Source of the DNA: a virus
Lineage: Duplodnaviria; Heunggongvirae; Uroviricota; Caudoviricetes
Virus record (IMG/VR): IMGVR_UViG_2778261694_000005
Location: 1-16,171 of that record
Reading direction: 5' to 3' (one strand)
Length of the DNA: 16,171 nucleotides
In this document: one piece after another, positions 1-14,746 of the stretch
Layout: each line of letters opens with the position of its first letter
Numbering within the stretch: position 1 is the stretch's first letter
Position numbers and translations under genes: made by a program
Notes under the pieces: generated by a model
Told to the model about the DNA's origin: nothing
Databases searched by the model: none
Seen by the model: the letters and a program-made list of their open reading frames with translations, nothing else

Positions 1-201
1 TTACCCATTGGCGCGGCTTAAGAGCTTATTTTTGAATTCACAATGGTCACGATATAACCATCTTGCTCGCCCGTGGATAACTTTGGCTTTTGGCAGGTCG
101 CCGGACTTAATCCGGTCATAGATGAAGGTTTTACCGAAGCCAGTATCGGCCATGATGAATTTCAAATCAACCAGTGAATCAGGTTGTAGTTCGTGTTGCA
201 T
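1..201 (-). CDS. xis: Excisionase / AlpA-family small DNA-binding protein (66 aa)
   Basis: Complete ORF with GGAG RBS about 9 nt upstream of the ATG at 201. Small basic protein with an HTH-like core (DTGFGKTFIYDRIKSGDLP) typical of excisionase/AlpA proteins. Sits at the distal end of the leftward operon, where xis precedes int in lambdoid phages. Confidence 0.6.
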   Translation of the reverse strand: MQHELQPDSLVDLKFIMADTGFGKTFIYDRIKSGDLPKAKVIHGRARWLYRDHCEFKNKLLSRANG

Positions 202-244
202 GAGTGCTATCTCCGAATAGGGAATCGAACCTGCAAATCAGGCA

Positions 245-266
245 AGAAAAAACCGCCATCAGGCGG
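245..266 (-). terminator. Intrinsic terminator (leftward)
   Basis: Minus-strand reading: stem CCGCC / loop / GGCGG (253-266) followed by TTTTTTCT (plus-strand A-tract 245-252). Overlaps the stop codon of the 259-426 ORF. Confidence 0.5.
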
Positions 267-426
267 CTTGGTGTTCTTTCAGTTCTTCAATTCGAATATT
301 GGTTACGTCTGCATGTGCTATCTGCGCCCATATCATCCAGTGGTCATAGCAGTCGTTGATGTTCTCTGCTTCGATAACTCTGTTGAATGGTTCTCCATTC
401 CATTCACCTGTGACTCGGAAGTGCAT
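259..426 (-). CDS. Small hypothetical phage protein (55 aa, MHFRVTGEWNGEPFNRVIEAENINDCYDHWMIWAQIAHADVTNIRIEELKEHQAA)
   Basis: ORF below the 60-aa cutoff of the supplied track. ATG at 426 is preceded by GGAG 7 nt upstream; stop TGA sits inside the terminator hairpin. Same orientation as the flanking operon. Confidence 0.5.
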   Translation of the reverse strand: MHFRVTGEWNGEPFNRVIEAENINDCYDHWMIWAQIAHADVTNIRIEELKEHQAA

Positions 427-465
427 TTATCATCTCCATAAAACAAAACCCGCAGTAGCGAGTTC

Positions 466-494
466 AGATAAAAGAAATCCCCGCGAGTGCGAGG
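466..494 (-). terminator. Candidate intrinsic terminator (leftward)
   Basis: Minus-strand hairpin CCUCGC-ACUC-GCGGGG (one G-U pair) followed by AUUUCUUUUAUC, just downstream of the 499-729 ORF. Confidence 0.4.
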
Positions 495-498
495 ATTG

Positions 499-729
499 TT
501 ATTCACCTTTGACGACAAGTTGCAGGTTAGCCACGGTTAACCTCCTGCGGCGGTTCTGGTAGAGGCATCCTTCTTTAACCAGATGCTCAAACTTGCTGTA
601 ATAACCGATACGGCTTAGTGTTTCTTTCCCTGCATTCTCGCCTTCTTTGAGAATTCCTCTTTCGCTAAGAATCAGATCGTGTTTTGTTCCGGTAATAACA
701 TATTTGCCTAGGTCTATGTTTAGCTTCAT
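499..729 (-). CDS. Hypothetical protein (76 aa)
   Basis: ORF with GGAG RBS about 9 nt upstream of the ATG at 729; co-oriented with the early-left operon. No recognisable motif. Confidence 0.5.
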   Translation of the reverse strand: MKLNIDLGKYVITGTKHDLILSERGILKEGENAGKETLSRIGYYSKFEHLVKEGCLYQNRRRRLTVANLQLVVKGE

Positions 730-745
730 TGTTAATTACTCCATG

Positions 746-1060
746 TTAATTTATTCGTATGCCTGCTCTTTCTTCATCGAGTTTTTTTAGCTTGTATCGC
801 ATAGCTCTTACTGAATAAATTGAGCGGCAGGTTGCAATTGCTATTTCTTCTGCGGAGAACTTACCGAAAAGTGATACTTCGGCTCTTGTCCATCGTCTTC
901 CACGAAGTCGGCTAACAATGTCAGCGCCAATCCTTGTTGCTTTCGCCATTACTGCTTTTTCAGTCCTTTCCAGTTTTTCAGCGATAACTTCAACTGGCAT
1001 TGTCGCCGCTACTTCGCGTAAGAAATCGACTTCCCATTTCTCCCATGGAGTCTTTTTCAT
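746..1060 (-). CDS. Hypothetical protein (104 aa)
   Basis: Co-oriented ORF tightly packed between neighbours. No recognisable catalytic motif; weak RBS, so the start is uncertain. Confidence 0.5.
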   Translation of the reverse strand: MKKTPWEKWEVDFLREVAATMPVEVIAEKLERTEKAVMAKATRIGADIVSRLRGRRWTRAEVSLFGKFSAEEIAIATCRSIYSVRAMRYKLKKLDEERAGIRIN

Positions 1061-1071
1061 AGGCGATACCG

Positions 1072-1554
1072 TTATTTGATAAGAAGTGAAGGTTTCCCAA
1101 CTTTGAGTTGAGCGCCGGGGATATTTATTCCTGCTTTTAGTTGGTGTTTGATTGCCAACTTGTCGGCTTTAATTGTCGTTTCAAACTCAACGTATTCAGG
1201 AGGAATGGCGCTTGAGTCGATGATTTCTACAGTTTCTGACGGTTTGCGGATTGTTACCTGGTGAATACCTGCTCGAATCTTTTTCTTGCCAACCATTTCA
1301 AGCGATGACGCTATATACGCCATAATGTTGTCAATCTTATTTTGAATTACTGCGGCTCGTTCATTTAGTGACTTTGCCTCTTCCTTGAGGCATTCAGCAT
1401 AACCAGATTCATTTTTAATAATGGCAAGAAGTTGCTCTATTTTATCGGTAAATTCTCCTTCCATGCCTTCTATTGTGTCAGCAATCATCTCTGGTTCTAA
1501 ATCTGAATCCATCAGCTTTGCGTATTCATTGGCAATTTCATACAGTTTGCTCAT
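1072..1554 (-). CDS. Gp157-like phage protein (160 aa), recombination-module associated
   Basis: Acidic helical protein immediately downstream of the recT/HNH genes with a 4-nt overlap with the HNH ORF. Resembles, from memory, the siphovirus Gp157 family that often accompanies phage single-strand annealing proteins; family assignment is tentative. Confidence 0.5.
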   Translation of the reverse strand: MSKLYEIANEYAKLMDSDLEPEMIADTIEGMEGEFTDKIEQLLAIIKNESGYAECLKEEAKSLNERAAVIQNKIDNIMAYIASSLEMVGKKKIRAGIHQVTIRKPSETVEIIDSSAIPPEYVEFETTIKADKLAIKHQLKAGINIPGAQLKVGKPSLLIK

Positions 1555-2018
1555 TTGCCATTCCTCTCAGTGGAGATCCCAGAAGAAACCTCAGCAACTA
1601 TCCTTGCCTCGCAGGCGTCGACAAAGCTACCAAACGACCCAAGATACTCATTCATGAATGTGGCTCTCCATTTTCCTCTTTGCTTGTGAAACCCAACTCC
1701 AGTAATGCCAGATGTGTTATTTTTCTGTTTTCTCTTGTTCAGAAGATTTATTTGCTGAGAGACGCACCTAAGGTTTTCTATTCGGTTATCACTCGGGTTT
1801 CCATTGATATGGTCTATTACCATCCCTTCTGGAATTTCACCGTGGTGAATTTCCCATACAACCCTATGCACGTATTCTCTTTTTCCGTTAATGCTTACAA
1901 TGCAATGGCCAGATTTTGTTTTTCCTCCTGCCTTATCACCAGCCCTCATCCATCGTGCTGGCTTAATCCGCCAAAAAAGCAATCCATCTTCATAACGAAA
2001 CAATTCAGACGCTTTCAT
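1551..2018 (-). CDS. HNH homing-type endonuclease (155 aa)
   Basis: Contains the HNH-3 type motif VIDHINGNPSDNRIENLR and a C-terminal NTSGITGVGFHKQRGKWRA segment (AP2-like DNA-binding region). Overlaps the recT stop by 14 nt. Confidence 0.75.
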   Translation of the reverse strand: MKASELFRYEDGLLFWRIKPARWMRAGDKAGGKTKSGHCIVSINGKREYVHRVVWEIHHGEIPEGMVIDHINGNPSDNRIENLRCVSQQINLLNKRKQKNNTSGITGVGFHKQRGKWRATFMNEYLGSFGSFVDACEARIVAEVSSGISTERNGK

Positions 2019-2913
2019 GCCGAATCTCTATTTTTTCTTTACATTCCATGTAGACTGCCTGGACGTTTTGTTGCAGCTTCATACCATGTGTGAGCCTGTA
2101 GGCATTAGCGAAGATGCGCTTAAGGTCATCCATGTTTTCAGCCTGAGCCATTTCATCACAAAGAAGTTGTGCTTTATCCGTTATTTCCTGCTGGCGTTTC
2201 CGTTCATCTTCGCGGATATCTTCCTCTGATTTGTGCGGCATAACTGGTTCAGTCCACACACCTTCTTCTTCGTTTAGTACGTGAATAGCACTATCAAGAC
2301 GTGATGCCTTAGGCCAATACTTGCTTGCACGCTTTACGACCGTCTTTCGCGCCATCTCATTCCAGTGATTTACCCATGGTCCTTTATCGCTGAAGGCCGC
2401 CTTGCTTGTTTTCCTTACAGCCTCAATTTCAGCCAGACTCATCTCTTCCGTTAGATAATCACCTGCTGGCGTCTTAACTGTGCAGTAAACGCCAACGATA
2501 TCACCACGATCACCGAAGGCGTTGTATTTATGGGTTGGTGCTTTATCAAGCCCGTTTGACTCATAGGTATCGTTAGCATGAACAAGTTTTGCCTGACCCC
2601 ATGAGATAACACCAGACTCCATTGCAATATGGAGCAATCCCATATAACTGATATCAAGGCACACCATGCCGTCGCGCGGAACCAGATAAGCCAGTTTGCT
2701 GGCCGGGTTTAAGGTGATGCCGATCGCCGCAACGTTGATGATAGCGTTCTGTGCGCTGGTCGGATTTGCCAGTGCCGTTTTAGCCAGGTAATCATTTTTC
2801 TGGAAATACTGAATTGCAAACTGGCTTTCCTTAGCCCATGTCACCGTCTGTTCAGTCAATGCTCCGCAGAATAACTGCTCTTGCTGTTTAACGAATTCAA
2901 CGATATTGCTCAT
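2005..2913 (-). CDS. recT: RecT-family single-strand annealing recombinase (302 aa)
   Basis: The segment GPWVNHWNEMARKTVVKRASKYWP matches the conserved RecT core (Rac RecT GPWVTHWEEMAKKTAIRRLFKYLP, from memory). GGAG RBS upstream; occupies the bet position of the PL operon. Confidence 0.85.
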   Translation of the reverse strand: MSNIVEFVKQQEQLFCGALTEQTVTWAKESQFAIQYFQKNDYLAKTALANPTSAQNAIINVAAIGITLNPASKLAYLVPRDGMVCLDISYMGLLHIAMESGVISWGQAKLVHANDTYESNGLDKAPTHKYNAFGDRGDIVGVYCTVKTPAGDYLTEEMSLAEIEAVRKTSKAAFSDKGPWVNHWNEMARKTVVKRASKYWPKASRLDSAIHVLNEEEGVWTEPVMPHKSEEDIREDERKRQQEITDKAQLLCDEMAQAENMDDLKRIFANAYRLTHGMKLQQNVQAVYMECKEKIEIRHESV

Positions 2914-3221
2914 GCAGCTTCTCCAAAAATGTGTCTGCGTTTGAATATTGCGAAGGCATATTCAGCCTTAACTCTTTCGGTTATTGCATCCCAGAACCAT
3001 TCAGCGGCTTTTTCCTGATAGTTACAGTCATCATCTTCCAGCCAGTCGATAGCGTCCTTAGTGTGTTCATCTGGTTTATATGAGCGAAGCATTTCGCTTA
3101 TTGGGTCGCAACGTTTGCAGAGGCGATCAACTTCACTGTTGATTCGTTCGTAATCTTCATCAGTAAAACTTGCGATTATTTGCGATATTTCACGCTTATC
3201 ATTCAGAGTCAGAATCATCAT
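2910..3221 (-). CDS. Hypothetical acidic protein (103 aa)
   Basis: ATGATG start with AGGAG RBS 5 nt upstream; 4-nt overlap with the recT start. No recognisable motif. Confidence 0.55.
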   Translation of the reverse strand: MMILTLNDKREISQIIASFTDEDYERINSEVDRLCKRCDPISEMLRSYKPDEHTKDAIDWLEDDDCNYQEKAAEWFWDAITERVKAEYAFAIFKRRHIFGEAA

Positions 3222-3302
3222 CTTTCTCCTGTTCTTTGTGCTGATTGAGCATTTCTTTCATCTGACGAATGAATTCTTCGTCTGACCAGTTATCTGTAAA
3301 AC

Positions 3303-3455
3303 TCATTTCCTGCGATACCACGGAAGGTTGATAGCTGATTTCATCGCTTTATTTGCTTCAAGCCACATTTTTGAATCACCAATAAATCGGGCTATTACTG
3401 CTTTGTTCTGTGCAGCACGAAGCATCTGGTGATTAATGGCTATTTCATTGCGCAT
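3303..3455 (-). CDS. kil: Kil-like small protein (50 aa), putative host division inhibitor
   Basis: Sub-threshold ORF with a strong GGAGG RBS 5-9 nt upstream of the ATG at 3455. Contains IARFIGDSKM, which resembles the lambda Kil core as I recall it. Lies directly downstream of the cIII-like gene, as in lambda. Confidence 0.5.
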   Translation of the reverse strand: MRNEIAINHQMLRAAQNKAVIARFIGDSKMWLEANKAMKSAINLPWYRRK

Positions 3456-3574
3456 AACGCCTCCAGTTGTTTCTTTGCTGCTCTGATTAATTGTTTAACT
3501 CGGCGTGATAATTCAGATTCGTGCGGGTAGAAAGCGGACATGACGCCGCTACCCGCGAGCTGAAAGTGCATCAT
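3440..3574 (-). CDS. cIII: CIII-like small protein (44 aa), putative FtsH inhibitor
   Basis: The track ORF 3440-3679 is a read-through extension; the supported start is the ATGATG at 3574, which has an AAGGAG RBS 6 nt upstream. The product (MMHFQLAGSGVMSAFYPHESELSRRVKQLIRAAKKQLEALCAMK) has the amphipathic ES-L-R--K-L pattern of the lambda CIII central helix. Confidence 0.55.
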   Translation of the reverse strand: MMHFQLAGSGVMSAFYPHESELSRRVKQLIRAAKKQLEALCAMK

Positions 3575-3638
3575 GGGTAACTCCTTATATTTGATTGCAT
3601 AACGAAAACGCCTCGAGTGAAGCGTTATTGGTATGCAT

Positions 3639-3664
3639 ATAAAAAAGCCCTCACACTGGAGGGC
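3639..3664 (-). terminator. Intrinsic terminator (leftward) within the PL operon
   Basis: GCCCTC-ACACTG-GAGGGC hairpin (3647-3664) followed on the minus strand by a U6 tract (plus-strand AAAAAA 3641-3646). Confidence 0.6.
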
Positions 3665-3782
3665 AAAGAAGATTTCCAATAATCAGAACAAGTCGGCTCC
3701 TGTTTAGTTACGAGCGACATTGCTCCGTGTATTCACTCGTTGGAATGAATACACAGTGCAGTGTTTATTCTGTTGTTTATGC

Positions 3783-3809
3783 CAAAAATAAAGGCCGACT
3801 ATGCGGCCT
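3783..3809 (-). terminator. Intrinsic terminator (leftward) at the end of the 207-aa gene
   Basis: AGGCCG-ACTATG-CGGCCT hairpin (3792-3809) followed on the minus strand by UUUAUUUUUG; overlaps the gene stop codon. Confidence 0.55.
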
Positions 3810-4422
3810 CGGAAGGAAGTCCAATCATCTTATTCAAATCTTCTACCCGTAAAGCAGGAAGTGCTGCACTTGCTTTATCTGCTTCTTTTGGTAGCAACTC
3901 TTTGCTTTCAGGCCAGACCTCAATAAGTCGCTTAACTGTTGTGACTGAGTTCAAAGCAGCCCATACATTTGATTCGATATCCTTTTTCCTGGCTTCAAGT
4001 TTTTGTTGCAATTCGCAGATTTCATCAAACCTTTTTGTTATTTTGTGTTCTGCGTCAAACATGCATTTATCTTTGTTGGGGGTAGGGAGAAATATATCTT
4101 CACCGTTGCCGTCTTTTCCGTATGAATGCCAGCCAACCCTTCTTCCAGATACAGTCAGATAAATCGAACTTGAACTGACATCGCGTGAGTAAAATGAACA
4201 TCCAAGCTTTTGAAGTTCCTCACTTGCAGCCATTAACTTTGATGCCAGCTGGTCCACTTCTTCGGTTTTCTTTTTCCCGCCAAACGCAATAACTCTGGCG
4301 TCAAGTGCAAGCTGGTTCTTTAACTTTGTTACTTCTTCAAGTTCAGTGAAAACCCCAGACTTAATTAAAGCGTTACGAGCGATTTCCTCTTTCATTCTCG
4401 TAGTTAAGCGGATTGATGACAT
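3799..4422 (-). CDS. Hypothetical protein (207 aa from the RBS-supported start; track ORF extends to 4482)
   Basis: Long ORF immediately downstream of the N-like gene. The internal ATG at 4422 has a GAGG RBS about 9 nt upstream, whereas the ATG at 4482 lies inside N. Predicted helical/coiled-coil and charged; no motif recognised. Confidence 0.65.
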   Translation of the reverse strand: MSSIRLTTRMKEEIARNALIKSGVFTELEEVTKLKNQLALDARVIAFGGKKKTEEVDQLASKLMAASEELQKLGCSFYSRDVSSSSIYLTVSGRRVGWHSYGKDGNGEDIFLPTPNKDKCMFDAEHKITKRFDEICELQQKLEARKKDIESNVWAALNSVTTVKRLIEVWPESKELLPKEADKASAALPALRVEDLNKMIGLPSEAA

Positions 4423-4483
4423 ATTAATTCCTCTCAAATAAGTGGTTTGCTGCCTAATTTCATTTTCTGGCGACCAACACAAG

Positions 4484-4867
4484 TCACCTCGCCGTCAGTT
4501 GTTTTGATTTCCGGTAGCCTGCCGCGTAAATGGCTACGTTTGGAAGACATACACCAGTTTCTGGTTGCTTATGTCCAAACTCATTCGCGTACACAATGGC
4601 CGCTCGCTCCAGATTGCGTCTGTATTCTTTCTGTTGCCAGATCACGTCCTGTGCCATGAACTTAATTGGCTTAGCGTCTTCTATGCGCTCAGGCGTTTCG
4701 TGAGTACCTTTAGCCTGAATCTGCGCTCTGCTTAGAGTAGGGCGGTGTAATACTTCTGAACTTATTGCTTCTTCGCGGGCCAGTACGCCGTTAGCTAATG
4801 CCTTTGCCTTTAAACGCTCACGACGACGAGAACGTGAATTGCCTTTGAACTGAGTTCTGCGTGTCAT
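4484..4867 (-). CDS. N: N-like transcription antiterminator (127 aa)
   Basis: First gene after the about 240-nt leader leftward of OL/PL, with a strong AGGAGG RBS. The N-terminus carries an arginine-rich motif (RSRRRERLKAKALANG) like the lambda/P22 N ARM, and boxB-type hairpins occur at both nut positions. Confidence 0.7.
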   Translation of the reverse strand: MTRRTQFKGNSRSRRRERLKAKALANGVLAREEAISSEVLHRPTLSRAQIQAKGTHETPERIEDAKPIKFMAQDVIWQQKEYRRNLERAAIVYANEFGHKQPETGVCLPNVAIYAAGYRKSKQLTAR

Positions 4868-5032
4868 ATAGACCTCCTGATGAACTTTGGTGGTGTGGTA
4901 GGTGGGAGACCCATTTCGACCTGTTTCGGCCTACTTCAATTCGGCAATAGTCCCGCAGGCCTCGCCGCTTTACGTGCGGCATATTCCCGTCCATGAACCC
5001 TTCACCACACCCCAAAGTTCACTTTGGTTATT

Positions 5033-5047
5033 GCGCTTTGTCAGCGC
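5033..5047 (-). promoter_or_regulatory. nutL boxB RNA hairpin (GCGCUGACAAAGCGC)
   Basis: Minus-strand sequence GCGCTGACAAAGCGC: 5-bp stem with a GACAA pentaloop, in the PL leader upstream of N. I recall this as the P22-type boxB. No canonical boxA was found beside it. Confidence 0.6.
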
Positions 5048-5109
5048 CGTAGATTCATATTCGAATCGTTGTATATTCACCGCCCTGGTGAGTAGTGCGT
5101 CCTGCTGAT

Positions 5110-5200
5110 GGGTAAACTTTATCGGAATGATAAATTAATGGCAATAGCAAAATGATAAATTCTTTTGATTTTCAAATATCGTATTGATTCTTATGGTGTT
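5110..5200 (-). promoter_or_regulatory. Putative OL/PL operator-promoter region
   Basis: AT-rich region with repeated TGATAAATT motifs (5128-5136, 5153-5161) and an inverted half-site TTTATC (5118-5123). The same TGATAAA motif recurs in the cI-cro intergenic region. Exact -35/-10 elements could not be assigned. Confidence 0.45.
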
Positions 5201-5340
5201 TTATTTTGTTGTAGGAATTCGACAGGATAAATAAAGAGATTTGAGGGAGATCTGGATTGCGTGGTTTAGCAAGTTGTATCAATCAGTTTTTCAATAAATA
5301 CAATGAGTTATGTTTTTTTAGGTGGGGGGATCGTGAGGCA

Positions 5341-5365
5341 AAGAAAACCCGGCGCTGAGGCCGGG
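5341..5365 (-). terminator. Intrinsic terminator (leftward) closing the cI-proximal accessory locus
   Basis: Minus-strand CCCGGC-CUCAGC-GCCGGG hairpin followed by UUUUCUU, immediately after the 33-codon ORF and upstream of OL/PL. Confidence 0.6.
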
Positions 5366-5376
5366 TTATGTAGGCA

Positions 5377-5478
5377 TTATGCGGCTTTTTTGGTGTGTGC
5401 TGACGAGCGAGCCAGAATCTCGTTAATGAGAGATCTCAGGGTCATTGCATCTTTGTGCAGAGTGGACATGGTTTTCAT
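5377..5478 (-). CDS. Candidate small protein (33 aa, MKTMSTLHKDAMTLRSLINEILARSSAHTKKAA)
   Basis: Sub-threshold ORF with a GAGG RBS 7 nt upstream of the ATG at 5478, followed within 12 nt by an intrinsic terminator. Could instead be non-coding RNA or a chance ORF. Confidence 0.35.
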   Translation of the reverse strand: MKTMSTLHKDAMTLRSLINEILARSSAHTKKAA

Positions 5479-5547
5479 TGCGTTTCCTCGGTTTATTTTA
5501 TGGTACTAGCCTAGTTCAAATAGACTATATGAAATCTTGATTTACTA

Positions 5548-5928
5548 TTAAGGCCATTGGGTTGGTGGAAGATCGTGGGTTTTTATCTGCGTATTTGCTT
5601 CCACACATTTATCATAGTCTAATTTCTCTACAGCAAGCAATAGTGATTCAGCATACATCAATCCTTGTTTGATGTTCATAACATTTATGCTTGCACTTGC
5701 GGCATCCATATCCTTTGCTGTCTCTACCATGTGCTCAAAGCTTTGAGCAATAGAGTCAACACCGTTTTTCATCCTTGTAAACACTAATTTTAGCTCATCA
5801 AGGCTTGGATTCGTTAGATCATACATCCCATGCATTCCATGGGCTTCGAATAACTCTGACAACGATCTAAGGGCGAAGTTCACAGAATCAATAACTTGGT
5901 CGTACTTTTTCTTATCAAGATCATTCAT
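5548..5928 (-). CDS. Hypothetical protein (126 aa) in the rexAB-equivalent position, candidate lysogen-expressed accessory factor
   Basis: Clean ORF co-oriented with and immediately downstream of cI, between cI and OL/PL. Visibly AT-rich and AAA/AAT-rich codon usage compared with flanking phage genes. No transmembrane segment or known motif recognised. Confidence 0.7.
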   Translation of the reverse strand: MNDLDKKKYDQVIDSVNFALRSLSELFEAHGMHGMYDLTNPSLDELKLVFTRMKNGVDSIAQSFEHMVETAKDMDAASASINVMNIKQGLMYAESLLLAVEKLDYDKCVEANTQIKTHDLPPTQWP

Positions 5929-6045
5929 TAAAAATATAACCTTTTAACTATTTGATATTGCTGCATTTATATCAATATATGTATTTCACATATATCACCC
6001 AAACGTCTCTTCAGGTCACTGGCTATCAGCTATGTGACGATAAAG

Positions 6046-6750
6046 TCACGAACTTTTCAGCCACTCCCTTGCCTCGATGTCATCCAGATGGCGTGACTGC
6101 TTCAGAATACCAGCCACATACTCCACCTTTGCTACTTGATGATAAGGCAACGTTATTGGTCTGTGGTCCTGGTTGATGCTTGTAAACTGGTATTCTCCGT
6201 CTCTGTCATAGCCAAGAACTTTGATCATGTTGTGTCCTTCAACGGTTCTGACAAACACCTCATCACCCGGGAATACTTTGGTGTTAGGCTCAATGAGTAC
6301 ATATTCTCCTGATTTTATTCTAGGCCACATGCTGTCTCCTTTCACACGAAGGCCAAAGGCATCTGGATCATCGCTATAAATTTTGAGCCACCCATCGCGC
6401 TCTTCGGTCATCTCGATGGCACCATCAACACCAAGAATTGCCTCACCAACCACGCGCACTAACCCTTTTCTTACCTGACCGACAAAAGTTAAAGAATCTG
6501 AGCATGATGCAATTGGTGTTACATCATGTACCAAATCAAGCCACCCATTAGGTAACCCAAGTGCGGCTTCAAATTTTCTTGCTAGTTTATCCCCTATGTT
6601 TCGAGTGCTTTTTTCACCGGAGACTTGCGTGAGTTGAGAAGGGCTAACCCCAAGCTTATCGGCAAAGCTTGCATTAGTGTTACCCGCGATTTTTTTATGC
6701 TCATCTAGCAAAAACGCCAGATTCGATTTGCGAATATCTTTGTTTTCCAT
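6046..6750 (-). CDS. cI: CI-type prophage repressor (234 aa), HTH plus S24 LexA-like peptidase domain
   Basis: N-terminal HTH (FADKLGVSPSQLTQV) and C-terminal S24 autoprotease motif (VKGDSMWP with a downstream Lys). Divergent from the cro-like gene across an operator-containing spacer. Confidence 0.85.
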   Translation of the reverse strand: MENKDIRKSNLAFLLDEHKKIAGNTNASFADKLGVSPSQLTQVSGEKSTRNIGDKLARKFEAALGLPNGWLDLVHDVTPIASCSDSLTFVGQVRKGLVRVVGEAILGVDGAIEMTEERDGWLKIYSDDPDAFGLRVKGDSMWPRIKSGEYVLIEPNTKVFPGDEVFVRTVEGHNMIKVLGYDRDGEYQFTSINQDHRPITLPYHQVAKVEYVAGILKQSRHLDDIEAREWLKSS

Positions 6751-6863
6751 CTCACAATTTTCCCTCTATTTAGCAAATGGATAAATACGCAATATGATAA
6801 ATTTACATTGCGGCTGGTTTATCAAAATGGTAAAGTTATTCTGTATGATAAACGGAGGCACTA
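6751..6863. promoter_or_regulatory. OR / PRM-PR divergent promoter-operator region
   Basis: 113-bp spacer between divergent cI and cro carrying several copies of the TGATAAA motif (6794-6800, 6846-6852, GGATAAAT at 6778-6785, inverted TTTATCA at 6818-6824). Candidate -10 TATGAT at 6844-6849 upstream of cro. Confidence 0.5.
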
Positions 6864-7097
6864 ATGAGTAATGAACTACTACGCTGGCGAAAAGAGGCTT
6901 CTAGTGAGGAATGGAAGCGACTCGCCGCATTAGCGAAAACTTCAGTTGGCTATCTTGACCAGATTGCATATGGATTTCGAAGAGCTTCCCCTGATAAAGC
7001 GAATGCAATCGAAGAAGCTACTCGTAATTTCACGGCCTATAAACCCGTGAAAAAGGAAAACCTGGTGTTCGTATCGCGTAGAGCATCAGCAGCATAA
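6864..7097 (+). CDS. cro: Cro-like HTH repressor (77 aa)
   Basis: Small HTH protein with a GGAGG RBS, divergent from cI and first gene of the rightward operon. Confidence 0.75.
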   Translation: MSNELLRWRKEASSEEWKRLAALAKTSVGYLDQIAYGFRRASPDKANAIEEATRNFTAYKPVKKENLVFVSRRASAA

Positions 7098-7104
7098 GTA
7101 ACAC

Positions 7105-7150
7105 CGCTCTTTTCACAATGGACATTCGTCCTACGTCGCTGACAAAGCGA
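7105..7150 (+). promoter_or_regulatory. nutR (boxA CGCTCTTTT plus boxB UCGCUGACAAAGCGA)
   Basis: boxA-like CGCTCTTTT at 7105-7113 and a boxB hairpin TCGCT-GACAA-AGCGA at 7136-7150 between cro and cII. The loop is identical to that of the nutL boxB. Confidence 0.55.
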
Positions 7151-7235
7151 GCCCCAAGATATCTGACCAACTAAGGTCATATGCGTTTCCACGCATACCT
7201 TTCAACTAACTATTCACTATTGGAAATATTAAGAA

Positions 7236-7535
7236 ATGACACAAGCAAGTTACAGCAAGCCAACACAGCGAGAAATTGATCGCGCTGAAACTGATTTACT
7301 CATCAACCTGTCAACGCTTACCCAGCGCGGTCTGGCAAAGATGATTGGCTGTCATGAATCGAAGATAAGCAGAACGGACTGGAGATTTATTGCTTCGGTC
7401 TTGTGTGCTTTCGGAATGGCATCAGACATCAGTCCGATTAGCAGGGCTTTTAAGTATGCGCTTGATGGACTCACCAATAAAAAACGCCCGGTGTGCAAGA
7501 CCGAGCGTTCTGAACAAATCCAGATGGAGTTCTGA
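7236..7535 (+). CDS. cII: CII transcriptional activator (99 aa)
   Basis: The C-terminus (LTNKKRPVCKTERSEQIQMEF) matches the lambda CII C-terminus (ILTNKKRPAATERSEQIQMEF, from memory); positioned after cro/nutR. Confidence 0.85.
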   Translation: MTQASYSKPTQREIDRAETDLLINLSTLTQRGLAKMIGCHESKISRTDWRFIASVLCAFGMASDISPISRAFKYALDGLTNKKRPVCKTERSEQIQMEF

Positions 7536-7567
7536 GGTCATTACTGGATCTATCAACAGGAGTAATT

Positions 7568-7729
7568 ATGACAAAACGTCGTAAGAAATACCAGGAAAAA
7601 GAAGAGATTCGACACCCTGATTCACCTGAGGGATTAGTGGTAGCCGCAGCAAATAACAGGGCGTTCGCAGAGCGCCTTGTTGGTGTTTACAGACTAGCCA
7701 AAGCAGGAGTGAAACATGGGCGTCGTTAA
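7568..7729 (+). CDS. Small basic ORF (53 aa) between cII and the replication initiator
   Basis: AGGAG RBS 6-10 nt upstream of the ATG at 7568; basic N-terminus (MTKRRKKYQEKEE). Sub-threshold ORF; function unknown. Confidence 0.35.
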   Translation: MTKRRKKYQEKEEIRHPDSPEGLVVAAANNRAFAERLVGVYRLAKAGVKHGRR

Positions 7730-7778
7730 GTTAGCTGATTACAGGCATAACCCTGTACAACATCAGGAGGCATCCAGT

Positions 7779-8606
7779 ATGGGGTATGTCTCTATACACC
7801 GCCAGTTTATGGACAGCAGGCTCTATAAGGACTCTCAGGCAGTACATCTTTGGCTTCACTTAATCCTCAAGGCTAATCACGAATCTACTGTCGTCAATAC
7901 GGATATCGGTCCGATAACTGTTGATCGCGGTCAGATGATAACTGGACGCCCGTCGCTGGTCAGAGAAACATTCATCCCCGACAACAAAGTTCGGAGCTTA
8001 TTACGGACTTTTGAGTCGAAAGGGATGCTTAATATTTGCTCGATGGGGAAGAAATTTAGCCTGTTTACAATCGTTAAATATGACGATTTTCAGGCAAAAA
8101 ATTGTCCAACGGTTGTCCAACGGTTGTCCAACGCAAACACCAGTAATGGCGCGGCTCTCAGCGGAGATTGTCCAACGGTTGTCCAACGGTTGTCCATAAA
8201 CAATAATATAAATAATATCTCTAATACTGACGTATTAGAGAGTGCCACAGCAGACAAAAAGTCTGACAAGAAAAAACCTTCCGTTAGCTGTCAGGATGTT
8301 GTCGATGCTTACCACGAAATCCTTCCTGAAGCGCCAAGAATCCGCGCACTGAATGACAAGCGTAAAAACCAGATCCGAACGTTCTGGCGCAAAGCCGGAG
8401 TGATAACCCGCCAGCTTGACGGGCATGGGTTCACGATGCAGGACTGGAGAAATTATTTGAGCTACGTAGGCGAAAATTGCCGATGGATGTTCGAAGAACG
8501 CCCAAACCATCAACGCGGAACCGTCTGGCACAAAAAGGGATTTGATTTCCTGCTTAACGACAATACCTACCTGAAAGTTCGTGAGGGTGAACACGATGAC
8601 CGATAA
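7779..8606 (+). CDS. Replication initiation protein, O-like / replisome organizer (275 aa from the RBS-supported start; track ORF starts at 7716)
   Basis: The ATG at 7779 has an AGGAGG RBS 8 nt upstream. The gene contains the iteron array and AT-rich stretch internally, as lambda O contains ori, and directly precedes the DnaB-type helicase. Confidence 0.7.
   Translation: MGYVSIHRQFMDSRLYKDSQAVHLWLHLILKANHESTVVNTDIGPITVDRGQMITGRPSLVRETFIPDNKVRSLLRTFESKGMLNICSMGKKFSLFTIVKYDDFQAKNCPTVVQRLSNANTSNGAALSGDCPTVVQRLSINNNINNISNTDVLESATADKKSDKKKPSVSCQDVVDAYHEILPEAPRIRALNDKRKNQIRTFWRKAGVITRQLDGHGFTMQDWRNYLSYVGENCRWMFEERPNHQRGTVWHKKGFDFLLNDNTYLKVREGEHDDR
8102..8196. repeat. Origin iterons: two clusters of 3 tandem 11-bp repeats TTGTCCAACGG, followed by an AT-rich stretch
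   Basis: Direct repeats at 8102-8134 and 8168-8196 (last copy of each cluster degenerate) inside the O-like gene, followed by an AT-rich segment 8197-8240 (candidate unwinding element). Confidence 0.8.
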
Positions 8607-10032
8607 TTTTTATGCGCCGCCCCATAGCATCGAGGCAGAGCAGGCGGTGATTGGTGGATTGCTTCTGGATGATGACAGCAGTGAGCGCGTCCAGAAAGTT
8701 CTGGCGATGCTGAAGCCCGATTCATTTTACAGCCGACCACACAAAATCCTTTTCGAAGAAATAACCAGAATGCACTGGGAGCAAAAGCCAGTAGATGGCC
8801 TGACGCTTTTCGATGAACTGGAGCGTAAATCGTTAACGGTGTCTGTTGGCGGTTTTGCTTATATCGCTGAGATCGCAAAGAACACGCCAAGCGCAGCAAA
8901 CATCGTTGCCTATGCAATGCAGGTTCGTGAAACCGCAATGGAACGCTACGCCATCAACCGCATGACTGAAGCGACGGAATTGCTCTATTCCCGCAACGGA
9001 ATGACTGCGACGCAGAAGTACGAAGCTATTCAGTCGATTTTCACGCAACTGACAGACCATGCAAAAACCGGATCGCGTCGCGGCCTTCGTTCATTTGGTG
9101 AGGTCATGGAAGACTGGGTTAGCGACCTTGAGAAGAGATTTGACCCATCAGGAGAACAACGGGGAATGAGCACAGGGATCCCATCGTTGGACAGGATGCT
9201 GTCACCGAAAGGTCTGGTGAAAGGCTCTCTGTTTGTCATTGGCGCTCGCCCTAAGATGGGGAAAACGACGCTATACAGCCAGATGGCAATCAATTGCGCA
9301 GTGCATGAGAAAAAGCCCGCATTGATGTTCAGCCTTGAAATGCCAGGTGATCAGATACTGGAAAAACTGGTAGGGCAGAAGTCTGGTGTTAACCCGAATA
9401 TTTTTTACCTTCCGGCGACAAATGACGCCGATGACGGCTATCAGGGTGATTACGATGGTGACTTCAACAGGGCGATAGAAACAGCCAATCGCTTGAGTGA
9501 AATAGACCTGCTTTACATCGACGACACGCCGGGATTATCTCTGGCTCAAATCGTCAGCGAAAGCCGTCGAATCAAGCGAGAAAAAGGATGTGTTGGCATG
9601 ATTCTGGTCGATTACCTGACACTAATGACCGCTGAGAAGGCCGATCGCAACGACCTTGCTTACGGCATGATCACCAAAGGACTGAAGAACCTTGCCAAAG
9701 AGCTTGATTGCGTTGTTGTGCTTCTGACGCAGCTTAACCGCGCACTGGAAAGCAGAACCAATAAACGCCCATTACCAAGTGACTCACGAGATACAGGGCA
9801 GATTGAACAGGATTGCGATTATTGGGTCGGGATCCATCGTGAAGGCGCTTTTGATGACAGTGTTCCACCTGGTGAAACTGAACTAATCCTTCGTCTCAAT
9901 CGTCATGGCAATACCGGCACGGTGTATTGCATTCAGGCAAATGGCGCTATTTATGACACAGACCAACAGTCTGCTGAAATGCGCCGACGTGAACGCGAGG
10001 AACCGCAGTCCAAGAAGAAAGGAGGATTCTGA
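8596..10032 (+). CDS. Replicative DNA helicase, DnaB family (478 aa from the ATG at 8596)
   Basis: Walker A motif GARPKMGKTT and DnaB-like N- and C-terminal architecture; position equivalent to P22 gene 12. The track start at 8581 lacks an RBS, whereas the ATG at 8596 follows GAGGGTG. Confidence 0.85.
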   Translation: MTDNFYAPPHSIEAEQAVIGGLLLDDDSSERVQKVLAMLKPDSFYSRPHKILFEEITRMHWEQKPVDGLTLFDELERKSLTVSVGGFAYIAEIAKNTPSAANIVAYAMQVRETAMERYAINRMTEATELLYSRNGMTATQKYEAIQSIFTQLTDHAKTGSRRGLRSFGEVMEDWVSDLEKRFDPSGEQRGMSTGIPSLDRMLSPKGLVKGSLFVIGARPKMGKTTLYSQMAINCAVHEKKPALMFSLEMPGDQILEKLVGQKSGVNPNIFYLPATNDADDGYQGDYDGDFNRAIETANRLSEIDLLYIDDTPGLSLAQIVSESRRIKREKGCVGMILVDYLTLMTAEKADRNDLAYGMITKGLKNLAKELDCVVVLLTQLNRALESRTNKRPLPSDSRDTGQIEQDCDYWVGIHREGAFDDSVPPGETELILRLNRHGNTGTVYCIQANGAIYDTDQQSAEMRRREREEPQSKKKGGF

Positions 10033-10060
10033 TGACCATCTACATCACTGAGCTAATAAC

Positions 10061-10092
10061 AGGCCTGCTGGTAATCGCAGGCCTTTTTATTT
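10061..10092 (+). terminator. Intrinsic terminator (tR2-like) after the replication genes
   Basis: AGGCCTGC-TGGTAATC-GCAGGCCT hairpin (8-bp stem) followed by TTTTTATTT. Confidence 0.6.
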
Positions 10093-10108
10093 GGGGGAGA
10101 GGGAAGTC

Positions 10109-10549
10109 ATGAAAAAACTAACCTTTGAAATTCGATCTCCAGCACATCAGCAAAACGCTATTCACGCAGTACAGCAAATTCTTCCAGACCCAACCAAACC
10201 AATCGTAGTAACCATTCAGGAACGCAACCGCAGCTTAGACCAAAACCGAAAGCTTTGGGCTTGCCTTGGTGACGTCTCTCGTCAGGTTGAATGGCATGGT
10301 CGCTGGCTGGATGCAGAAAGCTGGAAGTGTGTGTTTACCGCAGCATTAAAGCAGCAGGACGTTGTTCCTAACCTTGCCGGGAATGGCTTTGTGGTAATAG
10401 GCCAGTCAACCAGCAGGATGCGTGTAAGCGAATTTGCGGAGCTATTAGAGCTTATACAGGCATTCGGTACAGAGCGTGGCGTTAAGTGGTCAGACGAAGC
10501 GCGACTGGCTCTGGAGTGGAAAGCGAGATGGGGAGATCGGGCAGCATGA
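10109..10549 (+). CDS. ninB: NinB (Orf) recombination mediator (146 aa)
   Basis: Protein starting [55 protein letters not shown], essentially identical to lambda NinB as recalled. The track start at 10091 is an upstream TTG extension; the ATG at 10109 has a GGGAGAGGGAAG RBS. Confidence 0.9.
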
Positions 10550-10719
10550 TGCGATGTTATCGGTGCGGTGAATGCAAAGAAGATAACCGCTTCCGACCAA
10601 ATCAACCTTACTGGAATCGATGGTGTCTCCGATGTGAAAGAACACCAACAGGGGTGTTACCACTACCGCAGGAAAAGGAGGACGTGTGGCGAGACAGCGA
10701 CGAAGTATCACCGACATAA
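10546..10719 (+). CDS. ninD: NinD (57 aa), small Cys-rich protein
   Basis: Starts at the ATGATG overlapping the ninB stop (ATGA). Sequence [16 protein letters not shown]... with C-x2-C...C-x2-C, as in lambda NinD. Confidence 0.8.
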
Positions 10720-10868
10720 TCTGCGAAAACTGCAAATACCTTCCAACGAAACGCTCCAGAAATAAACGCAAGCCAATCCCAAAAGAATCTGACGTAAAAA
10801 CCTTCAACTACACGGCTCACCTGTGGGATATCCGGTGGCTAAGACATCGTGCGAGGAATACAAGGTGA
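10686..10868 (+). CDS. ninE: NinE (60 aa)
   Basis: GTG start; product [59 protein letters not shown], near-identical to lambda NinE from memory. Confidence 0.85.
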
Positions 10869-11035
10869 TTGACCCAAATCGAAGTTACGAACAAGAAAGC
10901 GTCGAGCTGGCTTTAACGTGCGCTAATTGCGGTCAGAAGCTGCATGTGCTGTAAGTTCACGTGTGTGAGCACTGCTGCGCAGAACTGATGAGCGATCCGA
11001 ATAGCTCGATGCACGAGGAAGAAGACGATGGCTAA
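10865..11035 (+). pseudogene. ninF: ninF interrupted by an in-frame TAA (29-codon N-terminal ORF 10865-10954; remaining frame continues to 11035)
   Basis: GTG start overlapping the ninE stop. Translation [29 protein letters not shown]-stop, then the same frame reads [26 protein letters not shown] and ends in the ATGgcTAA overlap with ninG. Lambda NinF as recalled has Glu where the TAA occurs here. Confidence 0.5.
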
Positions 11036-11639
11036 ACCAGCGCGAAGACGATGTAAAAACGATGAATGTCGGGAATGGTTTCACCCTGCATTCGCCAATC
11101 AGTGGTGGTGCTCTCCAGAGTGTGGAACCAAGATAGCACTCGAACGACGAAGCAAAGAACGCGAAAAAGCGGAAAAGGCAGCAGAGAAGAAACGACGACG
11201 AGAGGAGCAGAAACAGAAAGATAAACTTAAGATTCGAAAACTCGCCTTAAAGCCCCGCAGTTACTGGATTAAACAAGCCCAACAAGCCGTAAACGCCTTC
11301 ATCAGAGAAAGAGACCGCGACTTACCATGTATCTCGTGCGGAACGCTCACGTCTGCTCAGTGGGATGCCGGACATTACCGGACAACTGCTGCGGCACCTC
11401 AACTCCGATTTGATGAACGCAATATTCACAAGCAATGCGTGGTGTGCAACCAGCACAAAAGCGGAAATCTCGTTCCGTATCGCGTCGAACTGATTAGCCG
11501 CATCGGGCAGGAAGCAGTAGACGAAATCGAATCAAACCATAACCGCCATCGCTGGACTATCGAAGAGTGCAAGGCGATTAAGGCAGAGTACCAACGGAAA
11601 CTCAAAGACCTGCGAAATAGCAGAAGTGAGGCCGCATGA
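11028..11639 (+). CDS. ninG: NinG (Rap) recombination endonuclease (203 aa)
   Basis: Cys-rich N-terminus ([24 protein letters not shown]) and overall sequence as lambda NinG; overlaps ninF and ninH with typical 4-nt overlaps. Confidence 0.9.
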
Positions 11640-11842
11640 CGTTCTCAGTAAAAACCATTCCAGACATGCTCGTTGAAGCATACGGAAACCAGACAGAAGT
11701 AGCACGCAGACTGAAATGTAGTCGCGGTACGGTCAGAAAATACGTTGATGATAAAGACGGGAAAATGCACGCCATCGTCAACGACGTTCTCATGGTTCAT
11801 CGCGGATGGAGTGAAAGAGATGCGCTATTACGAAAAAATTGA
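11636..11842 (+). CDS. ninH: NinH (68 aa)
   Basis: [37 protein letters not shown]... (Fis-like HTH), as lambda NinH. Confidence 0.85.
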
Positions 11843-12491
11843 TGGCAGCAAATACCGAAATATTTTGGTAGTTGGCGATCTGCACGGATGCTACACGAAC
11901 CTGATGAAAAAACTGGAGACGATAGGATTCGACACCAAAAAAGACCTGCTTATCTCAGTGGGCGATTTGGTTGATCGCGGTACAGAGAACGTCGAATGCC
12001 TGGAATTAATCACATTCCCCTGGTTCAGAGCTGTACGTGGAAACCATGAGCAAATGATGATTGATGGCTTATCAGAGCGTGGAAACGTTAATCACTGGCT
12101 GCTTAATGGCGGTGGCTGGTTCTTTAATCTCGATTACGACAAAGAAATTCTGGCTAAAGCTCTTGCCCATAAAGCAGATGAACTTCCGTTAATCATCGAA
12201 CTGGTGAGCAAAGATAAAAAATATGTCATCTGCCACGCCGATTATCCTTGTGACGAATACGAATTTGGAAAGCCAGTTGATCATCAGCAGGTAATCTGGA
12301 ACCGCGAACGAATCAGCAACTCACAAAACGGGATCGTGAAAGAAATTAAAGGCGCGGACACGTTCATCTTTGGTCATACGCCAGCAGTGAAACCACTCAA
12401 ATTTGCCAACCAGATGTATATCGATACCGGCGCAGTGTTCTGCGGAAATCTCACATTGATTCAGGTACAGGGAGAAGGCGCGTGGGCATAA
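11820..12491 (+). CDS. ninI: Ser/Thr protein phosphatase, lambda PPase / NinI-like (223 aa from the ATG at 11820)
   Basis: Metallophosphatase motifs GDLHGC, GDLVDRG and GNHE. Matches the lambda phosphatase starting [15 protein letters not shown]; the track start at 11745 is an upstream extension overlapping ninH. Confidence 0.9.
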
Positions 12492-13000
12492 GAGAACTAA
12501 ACCTCACCAAAGAACAGCATGAGTGGCTGAATGGCTGGCTTGAACTGTGGGGCGCATGGGTTTATTCAGGTCGTCTGGAAAAGCGCATGAGCAGCGTAAT
12601 AGCGAAGTTCATGGAGAGCGTAGAGCCGGGAAGAGTTATGACAAGGCCAATGTGCAATGATGATGATGGAATGTTGATTTCTCAGGTCGTCGATTCCGTC
12701 ATGTACATTGACAAGAAAGCCTTTGGCATCCTCCTCAGCTACTACGCTCATGGTTCATCTAAGCGAGCAATTGCATCCTACTATCACGCGACTGCAAAGC
12801 CACGCAAGATGTGTGGACGTGGTGGCGAGGGATGTAGAAAACCTTCACTGGCAACCTGTAGAAACGAAATTGACGACATCCTGAAAGCGTCGTTATTTGT
12901 TTTGTACCAGCCAATGCAAAATGCTTTCAAAATGCGTAAACGTGTTGAGAAAGTTAAGCATGTTGCTGTTAAAAGCCTTGACATGCAATTATCCATTTAG
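12482..13000 (+). CDS. Q: Late-gene antiterminator Q-like protein (172 aa)
   Basis: GTG start with a GGAGAAGG RBS, overlapping the ninI stop. Occupies the Q position immediately upstream of the PR'-like promoter and short terminated leader, and contains a Cys cluster ([10 protein letters not shown]...C). Not lambda Q by sequence; assignment is positional. Confidence 0.6.
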
Positions 13001-13007
13001 CCATAAT
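12978..13007 (+). promoter_or_regulatory. Candidate late promoter PR' (TTGACA - 18 bp - CATAAT)
   Basis: Perfect -35 TTGACA at 12978-12983 and -10 CATAAT at 13002-13007, straddling the Q stop codon as PR' does in lambdoid phages. Confidence 0.5.
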
Positions 13008-13017
13008 TAGAAGGTAA

Positions 13018-13059
13018 GCTGCCGTTAGTGACTCTTAAGTTGCAACGGTGGCTTTTTTT
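13018..13059 (+). terminator. Candidate tR' intrinsic terminator just downstream of PR'
   Basis: 9-bp stem (GCTGCCGTT / AACGGTGGC, two G-U pairs) with a 17-nt loop, followed by T7 (13053-13059). Would yield a short terminated leader unless modified by Q. Confidence 0.5.
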
Positions 13060-13063
13060 ATTT

Positions 13064-13138
13064 GGGTCAGTCGTATAAAGGTCATTACGGAAGGCTGTTA
13101 ACCTTCTTATCGTGGTTCGAGCCCACGCTGTCCCGCCA
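13064..13138 (+). tRNA. tRNA-Asn(GUU)-like gene, 75 nt, with one acceptor-stem mismatch
   Basis: Manual fold: acceptor GGGTCAG/CTGTCCC (T4:T69 mismatch), U8, A14, G18G19, anticodon stem GAAGG/CCTTC with loop CTGTTAA (anticodon GTT), T-arm CGTGG-TTCGAGC-CCACG, discriminator G, encoded CCA. Confidence 0.55.
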
Positions 13139-13143
13139 AACAT

Positions 13144-13219
13144 GCTGGTTTAGCTCCAATGGTAGAGCAGTCGCCTTGTAAGCGAATGGGTAGCGGTTCA
13201 AGTCCGTTAACCAGCACCA
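13144..13219 (+). tRNA. tRNA-Thr(UGU) gene, 76 nt
   Basis: Manual fold: acceptor GCTGGTT/AACCAGC, D-arm GCTC-CAATGGTA-GAGC, anticodon loop CTTGTAA (anticodon TGT), T-arm AGCGG-TTCAAGT-CCGTT, discriminator A, encoded CCA. Confidence 0.75.
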
Positions 13220-13300
13220 TAACTGAGCCGTAGCCACTGGCTATCCTGAATTCATCAGTGATAGTTACGCTGCGGCCTTCTACACATGATCTTCGTGAAA

Positions 13301-13342
13301 GCGGGTGGCAGGAGGTCGCGCTAACAACCTCCTGCCGTTTTG
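13301..13342 (+). terminator. GC-rich hairpin / weak terminator downstream of the tRNAs
   Basis: 10-bp stem GGCAGGAGGT / ACCTCCTGCC (13307-13336) with a 10-nt loop, followed by GTTTTG; flanking GCGGG/CCCGTGC could extend the structure. Confidence 0.4.
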
Positions 13343-13461
13343 CCCGTGCATATCGGTCACGAACAAATCTGATTACTAAACACAGTAGCCTGGATTTGTT
13401 CTATCAGTAATCGACCTTATTACTAATTAAATAGAGCAAATCCCCTTATTGGGGGTAAGAC

Positions 13462-13785
13462 ATGAAGATGCCAGAAAAACATGACCTGTTAGCCGCCATT
13501 CTCGCGGCAAAGGAACAAGGCATCGGGGCAATCCTTGCGTTTGCAATGGCGTACCTTCGCGGCAGATATAATGGCGGTGCGTTTACAAAAACAGTAATCG
13601 ACGCAACGATGTGCGCCATTATCGCCTGGTTCATTCGTGACCTTCTCGACTTCGCCGGACTAAGTAGCAATCTCGCTTATATAACGAGCGTGTTCATCGG
13701 CTACATCGGTACTGACACGATTTGTTCGCTTATCAAACGCTTCGCTGCTAAAAAAGCCGGAGTAGAAGATGGTGGAAATCAATAA
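13462..13785 (+). CDS. S: Holin S, class I, lambda-type dual start (107 aa)
   Basis: [45 protein letters not shown]... is near-identical to lambda S, including the Met1/Met3 dual-start (antiholin/holin) arrangement. Confidence 0.95.
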
Positions 13786-14690: not shown

Positions 14691-14721
14691 ATTTTTTTGC
14701 AAATCACAAAGTCAATTTAAT

Positions 14722-14746
14722 GAGCCTCGCGGTGCGGGGCTTTTTT
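14722..14746 (+). terminator. Intrinsic terminator after the lysis cassette
   Basis: AGCCTCGC-GGT-GCGGGGCT hairpin (8-bp stem, one G-U pair) followed by TTTTT. Confidence 0.6.

Follow-up and report, generated by a model that had tools for sequence, protein, structure and literature searches.

In bacteriophage lambda the slot between the repressor gene cI and the terminator t_imm is occupied by rexA and rexB, and in P22 sieA is found in a comparable place. The same flanks are present in H-19B, AU5Stx1, ST2-8624, mEp506 and lambda, with other cargo in each: AU5Stx1 has a 47-amino-acid (aa) open reading frame (ORF); mEp506 (record PV340542; locus L051, 2873-4003) has HicA/HicB/HicC, a toxin-antitoxin (TA)-chaperone set; ST2-8624 (locus L050, 2876-3933) has two genes matching the PADLOC models PD-Lambda-2_B (E 4e-50, over the first third of that model) and PD-T4-9_C (E 3e-11). 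A defence locus that is variable and lies downstream of cI was described earlier (Degnan 2007, as cited in bioRxiv 10.1101/2024.02.24.581848); the slot is already known, and the new part is only the cargo reported here. This cargo, a cassette of two small genes encoding a 126-aa protein and a basic 33-residue peptide (the large and the small gene below), is carried by IMG/VR virus record IMGVR_UViG_2778261694_000005, positions 1 to 16,171 (Caudoviricetes; this whole stretch of 16,171 nucleotides is called the window). The window corresponds to the early and immunity region in an Escherichia coli prophage of the lambdoid type (H-19B/Stx-phage-like). In the Providencia-type locus L034 a DUF3024 gene (PADLOC PDC-S43; 5357-5698) stands in the same slot, ahead of a homologous cassette.

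An earlier reading of the window, made from its letters alone (the sequence-only reading), had placed two ORFs with a terminator of their own in the rexAB-equivalent slot, as an AT-rich, probably horizontally acquired moron and a candidate for an exclusion, anti-phage or toxin-like system. Both ORFs, 5548-5928(-) and 5377-5478(-), the latter with its GAGG ribosome-binding site, were recovered exactly there, 3' of cI and co-oriented with it. OL1, OL2 and OL3 were mapped from the annotated ST2-8624 record GQ499358 (95% identical) to window 5118-5134, 5143-5159 and 5175-5191, and PL-like promoter hexamers at 5144..5116(-) overlap these operators; since operators and promoter map to 5116-5191, both ORFs are upstream of PL, on the cI side.

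The terminator that closes the unit has a minus-strand stem (5367..5346; 8 pairs, 6 of them G-C) followed by TTCTTTGCCT, a T-rich tail. The scan of 4800-7000 gave 3 terminator-like sites against 1.6 ± 1.2 in shuffles; this hairpin, AAAACCCGGCGCTGAGGCCGGGTT, is base-for-base identical to that of lambda t_imm and for that reason is not a chance match. Upon alignment of window 5200-5400 with the OL3-to-rexB region of lambda, homology was clear from about 5243 through the terminator and stopped just past the stem, where in lambda the 3' end of rexB follows. Because hairpin and flank are both homologous to lambda, the terminator is t_imm, a part of the resident immunity operon; it sits in a conserved flank common to lambda, H-19B, AU5Stx1 and other relatives without this cargo. 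The terminator claimed earlier is thus present (5338-5367) but is not private to the cassette. On the other side, homology to AU5Stx1 resumes at about 5992, 54 bp from the cI stop codon. The exchangeable cargo is 5368-5991, since the lambda and AU5Stx1 homology boundaries bracket this segment, and, judged from these alignments, its 624 bp take the place of rexAB. The AT-richness is real but modest, with a G+C content of 0.375 for the cargo vs 0.451 for cI and 0.459 for the entire window. The anatomy of the sequence-only reading is right and its positional argument is stronger than its author could have known; its functional claim is carried here as a hypothesis. As a separate observation, about 100 bp between OL3 and t_imm (5243-5340) are conserved in lambda and in E. 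coli prophages of three immunity types, with nothing obvious encoded; they may serve as a joint at which cargo is exchanged by recombination, or may be a regulatory element not recognised so far.

The data firmly support the cassette as an autonomous moron of two genes that moves horizontally and here takes up the place of rexAB in a lambdoid prophage. Of 5426 complete E. coli genomes, 32 (2009C-3133 and APEC 102026 among them) have window 5377-5990, in each case as one full-length chromosomal copy of at least 99.3% identity; the wider query 5300-6050, which includes the flanks, matched 875 E. coli records, 32 of them with the cargo. The near-identical cargo (at least 99.3%) adjoins at least three cI alleles and differing OL regions and, in other genera, homologous cassettes occupy other moron sites, which bears out the horizontal acquisition proposed earlier. 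No copy was found in sequenced E. coli phages or in the plasmid collection; of 50,697 sequenced phage records, the cassette is present only in Aeromonas phage AsXd-1 (MH178096), beside the integrase gene. A profile scan of 185,579 species-representative genomes with the close alignment returned one locus only, and the large gene is therefore a rare accessory gene. The cluster of proteins 100% identical to the large protein is represented on more than 1000 contigs.

Loci from Escherichia, Klebsiella, Cronobacter, Pantoea, Pectobacterium, Providencia/Proteus-type phages and Aeromonas were examined. The order cI (S24 and helix-turn-helix (HTH) domains)-cassette-N recurs in three other lineages, at 85%, 37% and 36% protein identity; in a Pectobacterium prophage the cassette is 3' of mnt and co-oriented with it, in an arc-mnt-ant (immI-like) region; in Klebsiella and Cronobacter it adjoins umuDC, in the end segment of the prophage that runs from tail-fibre genes to the attachment site (att); in AsXd-1 it adjoins the integrase and a DinI-like gene at the tail-fibre/att end; in L048 and Pantoea it is near an MBOAT acyltransferase or a glycosyltransferase gene, again at the tail-fibre/att end. 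These are classic moron sites (the cI-N slot, mnt/immI, nin and the tail-fibre/att end). Both genes are intact in every locus examined, except for a 1-nt indel in an A-run of the small ORF on metagenome contig L046, and an intrinsic terminator stands directly 3' of the small ORF in every locus. That of Pectobacterium (L005 5558-5600), AAACCCGGCACTCGCCGGGTTTTCTTTGCCTCA, has its stem and the tail GGGTTTTCTTTGCCTCA in common with the lambda-type t_imm of the window; this likeness suggests that the cassette moved together with a t_imm-like terminator. The large protein is neither a core phage protein nor a gene fragment, two outcomes that would have spoken against the sequence-only reading. Homologues of 73-75 aa, taken at first for decay of the large gene, were short gene calls over intact genes at the two loci checked.

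In every homologous locus examined the large gene is followed, 25-84 nt on, by an ORF of 32-36 codons, so that the small ORF is conserved wherever the large gene was looked at. Its Shine-Dalgarno motif is of the GGAG/GAGG type and at the same distance in all loci (AGGA/AAGGA in three). Over five 33-codon versions the proposed frame had zero internal stops, a mean proportion of synonymous differences (pS) of 0.72 and of nonsynonymous differences (pN) of 0.27, pN/pS 0.37; in the other two sense frames and in two antisense frames pN was at or above pS. By this measure the small ORF is under purifying selection and is a real gene. RefSeq/PGAP annotates the large ORF only, the 33-codon ORF being missing in 32 of 32 E. 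coli genomes; it is annotated in AsXd-1 and in some metagenome gene calls. The peptide is basic (3.7 kDa; isoelectric point (pI) 10.5) and ends with KKAA. An amphipathic helix is predicted for roughly its first 25 residues, and the heptad seam along this helix is continuous (conserved hydrophobic residues at 4, 7, 12, 14, 17, 18 and 21, and a small one at 11). Behind the helix comes a basic tail that ends [KQR]K[AV]A across the homologues. It had zero matches in Pfam, NCBIfam and PADLOC and only weak ones to phrog_34148, which has no annotated function (best E 0.002).

The two products are always of opposite charge (large protein -5 to -11, peptide +1 to +6), and the pairwise identities of the one follow those of the other (r = 0.80, 66 pairs), which fits inheritance as a unit and does not by itself prove contact. 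A G+C-rich hairpin, in some cases with a U-run and resembling an attenuator or partial terminator, was observed in the spacers of Klebsiella (L008 5379-5462), L025 (6385-6456) and Pantoea (L043 4379-4450); it could set the ratio of the two products. The spacer of the E. coli copy has no comparably strong structure.

The large protein is WP_021539111.1 (14 kDa; pI 4.8; net charge -8; predicted cytoplasmic) and matched phrog_16322, a family with no annotated function, end to end (E 8e-89). Homologues of 66-86% identity were found in Pectobacterium, Klebsiella, Pantoea, Citrobacter and Cronobacter, and more distant ones in Aeromonas phages (47%) and Providencia/Proteus-type lambdoid phages (36-37%). 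When 1.8 billion cluster representatives were searched exhaustively by profile, 18 clusters only were obtained, and there are no domain fusions among them, since all are of at most 134 aa. The AlphaFold2 model built from a 34-sequence alignment is a confidently predicted helical bundle (predicted local distance difference test (pLDDT) 90.5; predicted template-modelling score (pTM) 0.82) with three long helices (3-36, 43-71 and 74-101) and a short fourth one (105-117); pLDDT was 68 from 20 close sequences and 90.5 from the 34 diverse ones. Conserved residues cluster in the loop between helices 1 and 2 (G31, G34 and P41), in helix 3 (N85, Q88, G89 and L96) and at D104, C108 and W125.

No significant match of the large protein was found in Pfam, NCBIfam, PADLOC, PDB or BFVD; searches of PDB by sequence, with the 20- and 34-sequence profiles and with the peptide profile gave nothing below E 0.03. 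The best Pfam scores (DUF7373_C, E 0.012; HMD) were below threshold and inconsistent between members, and were discarded. Neither protein has a transmembrane segment (maximum Kyte-Doolittle window 0.81 for the large and 0.51 for the small one), and the absence of a recognised motif, noted before any search was made, holds after the searches also. No literature mention of WP_021539111 or phrog_16322 was found, in coverage that left outside the E. coli prophage defence screen of Brenes & Laub 2025, and WP_021539111 is absent from the DefensePredictor supplement files checked. Two Gifsy defence papers were considered and set aside; they deal with unrelated proteins (an ATPase; the HEPN protein HepS).

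Between the cI stop codon and 5367 zero terminator-like sites were found in the scan, and in the lysogen the cargo would be transcribed with cI by read-through from PRM, no terminator intervening before t_imm. It is firmly supported by this layout that the cargo is so placed that the lysogen should express it with cI. Additional transcription from its own promoter in the lysogen is probable; a promoter of its own is required in L048, where the upstream gene is divergent, and in the Klebsiella copy, which is at the prophage end after a host gene. Since the operators and PL are downstream of the terminator, the cargo is outside the PL transcript. The one match from a search of Rfam over 4400-7200 was to STnc310, below threshold and located in the region of the cI 5' end and PRM, and RNA folding of the 3' part was no better than in shuffles (z = -0.9). 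A hairpin GTGAC-GATAAA-GTCAC was also observed at 6033-6048, across the cI stop codon, and is kept in AU5Stx1; it has no U-run and is therefore not a terminator.

Table 1. Positions of the cassette and of neighbouring features in the window (strand as read in the record).
Feature	Position	Strand	Remark
Whole exchangeable cargo, 624 bp, G+C 0.375	5368..5991	-	alignment vs AU5Stx1 and three E. coli prophages
Cargo-specific leader, candidate sigma-70 promoter and weak AAGG ribosome-binding site	5929..5991	-	
Large gene, 126 aa	5548..5928	-	ATG at 5928, TAA at 5548
Intercistronic spacer, 69 nt	5479..5547	-	
Shine-Dalgarno GAGG of small ORF	5486..5489	-	7 nt 5' of ATG, read from sequence
Small gene, 33 codons, basic peptide	5377..5478	-	translation
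Intrinsic terminator, t_imm orthologue	5338..5367	-	ends cI-cargo unit, left cargo junction
OL1-OL3 operators and PL	5116..5191	.	3' of terminator
cI repressor	6046-6750	-	Peptidase_S24 domain, E 3.8e-16, and weak HTH
cro	6864-7097	+	
N	4484-4867	-	
RecT	2005-2913	-	
Gp157-family gene	1072-1554	-	

Beyond cro the plus strand encodes cII, a DnaB-type helicase, a phosphoesterase and a Rha-like protein. Two further genes were observed on the minus strand. An Nmad5-family gene ("nucleotide modification associated domain 5", E 8e-70; 227 aa; 3799-4482) is immediately 3' of N in the PL operon and is found in part of the related prophages and missing from others; an HNH endonuclease gene (1551-2018) stands between the RecT and Gp157-family genes and overlaps each by a few bases.

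With regard to function, it is tentatively proposed, with somewhat less than even confidence, that the unit acts as a TA- or sensor-effector-like pair protecting the lysogen against other phages. The peptide helix would dock onto the bundle, whose short fourth helix would leave room for it, and a stoichiometric complex would be formed, like that of a toxin with its antitoxin or of a sensor with its effector. ClpX recognition signals reportedly include the ...LAA end of ssrA and the ...RRKKAI end of MuA (a finding attributed to Flynn et al., 2003); the invariant C-terminus of the peptide could be a signal of this type and would make the peptide the short-lived partner. A superinfecting phage that shuts off host expression or binds the complex would then shift the balance, and the partner set free would inhibit growth of the phage or bring the cell to arrest, so that the lysogen population would be protected. 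Several observations speak for such a pair: the cassette has the position of rexAB, with cI on the same strand and no terminator between; relatives (mEp506, ST2-8624, L034) fill this slot with defence or TA cargo; placement of the lysogen-expressed type recurs (after cI, after mnt and at the tail-fibre/att end); and the two genes behave like one unit, being kept intact together and diverging in step, with products of opposite charge, a peptide under purifying selection that has a heptad seam and a conserved C-terminus, and a confidently modelled bundle. The more specific proposal, an unrecognised minimal anti-phage (abortive-infection or exclusion) system made of a 14-kDa bundle and a 33-residue peptide with the KKAA degron as infection timer or sensor, on a 0.6-kb cassette spreading among lysogen-expressed slots of temperate phages of Enterobacterales and Aeromonas, is regarded as doubtful.

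Several points weigh against protection as the function. Nuclease, NTPase, pore or other effector motifs are absent from both proteins; with PADLOC-DB 2.0.0, which includes PD-Lambda, PD-T4 and PDC candidates, the two E. coli proteins had no match at E ≤ 1, nor did the large proteins of the Aeromonas and Providencia-type loci have one at E ≤ 0.01, although these searches do pick up neighbouring cargo genes. The candidate promoter TTGATA-17-AATAGT (5975..5947) agrees with the consensus at 9 of 12 positions, and the region has 6 such sites vs 5.6 expected, i.e., the chance level. One copy is in the nin region between P and Q, which is lytically transcribed. The ClpX degron is so called by resemblance. 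Guilt by location is weak evidence, since genes for virulence, SOS functions and serotype conversion likewise reside in moron sites; the neighbours of the cassette include umuDC, DinI and the MBOAT acyltransferase.

It is unlikely that the cassette is a plain addiction module, i.e., a selfish TA pair that stabilises the prophage or itself and gives no phage protection, in which the toxin would be either the basic peptide, with the acidic bundle sequestering it, or the bundle, with a labile peptide checking it. Two small adjacent co-oriented genes, of opposite charge, always together and intact, would be expected of such a module; the weak upstream and strong downstream ribosome-binding sites and the attenuator-like hairpin of several loci fit a tuned stoichiometry, the peptide C-terminus is conserved and degron-like, and a bona fide TA system with a chaperone occupies the same slot of mEp506. 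Against it, similarity to TA families in Pfam, NCBIfam and PADLOC is zero, a DNA-binding domain for autoregulation and any enzymatic or membrane-disrupting feature are lacking in both proteins, and the decayed or orphan copies that TA systems usually leave were not seen. This explanation also overlaps with lysogen protection, TA activity and defence not being mutually exclusive. Likewise unlikely is a lysogenic-conversion or host-modulating factor, whose complex would bind a host protein (SOS/RecA, a protease, a nucleoid-associated or transcription factor) in the manner of TomB-Hha, DinI or cIII and would not target incoming phages. The absence of a defence signature in PADLOC and the SOS-modulator (umuDC, DinI) or surface-modification neighbours in several genomes agree with it; however, no member matches Pfam YbaJ/TomB or Hha, the peptide lacks Cys and is half as large as Hha, and the preferred site, right after the maintenance repressor, is the site of exclusion and defence cargo in lambda and its relatives.

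The remaining two explanations are less probable. A counter-defence or pro-phage role, in which the pair neutralises host or rival-prophage immunity or tunes induction or immunity of its own prophage to the benefit of the phage and not of the cell, is quite improbable. A small, acidic and helical protein lacking enzymatic motifs is a typical kind of phage inhibitor, the nin copy is lytically transcribed and the cassette adjoins the immunity regulators cI or mnt; yet in the window the transcript that covers it would be the lysogenic one and not the early ones from PL or PR, AsXd-1, with the cassette beside its integrase gene, is alone among the phage records searched, and the varied locations speak against a role wired to one immunity system. 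Finally, it is very improbable that the small ORF is untranslated and that the 3' region is a small RNA or structured 3' untranslated region, or that the antisense 68-codon ORF 5303-5509(+) is the real gene. The missing RefSeq annotation and an antisense stop-free stretch of 44-66 codons in all loci could be read in this way; the sense frame, however, has the lowest pN/pS and is stop-free in all sequences, the start, the Shine-Dalgarno-type motif, the length (32-36 codons) and the C-terminus are kept even with a partner at 36% identity, and neither Rfam nor RNA folding gave support for a structured RNA. The antisense ORF, which runs over the small gene and the terminator and is open in most loci, was set aside as a mere echo of the sense coding frame: selection is weaker in the remaining antisense frame, frame 1 (pN/pS 0.55, the usual coding echo), which is interrupted by a stop in L025.

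The rexAB slot of lambdoid phages is a recognised site of immunity cargo, and cataloguing its contents is a direct route to new defence and TA mechanisms; the present cargo is unusually small and without a recognisable domain. If the cassette protects lysogens, it would be among the smallest protein-only systems and would contain a functional micro-protein in phage-host conflict; if it is a host modulator instead, it would be a prophage accessory function widely shared by clinical and poultry E. coli, Klebsiella and Cronobacter. As a candidate the cassette is good but unproven; it merits an experiment and is not a discovery.

In comparison with known systems, the cassette shares with lambda rexA-rexB the position (same strand as cI, bounded by the cI stop codon and t_imm, upstream of OL/PL), the homologous OL3-terminator flank with its identical hairpin, and the build of a two-gene unit whose expression in the lysogen is expected. 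By sequence its products are not related to RexA or RexB (hhalign with the 34-sequence profile: probability 0.3% and 0.1%, respectively); the cassette encodes 126 + 33 aa in a cargo of 624 bp, whereas RexA and RexB have 279 and 144 aa and their genes take about 1.3 kb, and RexB is a polytopic inner-membrane protein, unlike either cassette product. With HigBAC/HicABC the cassette has in common the slot and flanks, in the close relative mEp506, a small multi-protein build with no large enzyme, and the proposed logic of a labile partner that would control an effector; it differs in having no homology to HicA, HicB or SecB-like proteins, two components and not three, and no recognisable RNase or other toxin fold. 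Resemblance to the TomB(YmoB)-Hha operon is at noise level, Pfam YbaJ and Hha being absent among the matches of 20 large and 8 small members. Arbitrium-like signalling is not matched; the peptide has no hydrophobic N-terminal segment and the large protein is a 126-aa bundle and not a TPR receptor.

Morons, reportedly described by Juhala et al. in 2000 for HK97/HK022-type phages, are said to be promoter-gene-terminator units inserted between conserved genes. The cassette is like them in its low G+C content, in the terminator after each copy, in the candidate promoter of its own, in its several unrelated sites and in its absence from most relatives; the differences are that the term names a mode of carriage and not a function, and that the terminator in the window belongs to the resident immunity operon. 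As for type II TA systems, no known toxin or antitoxin domain was found with Pfam, NCBIfam and PADLOC, and a complex of one toxic and one labile partner is putative; what was observed in the cassette is the bicistronic layout, the strict co-occurrence of the two genes, the opposite charge of their products and the degron-like C-terminus of the peptide.

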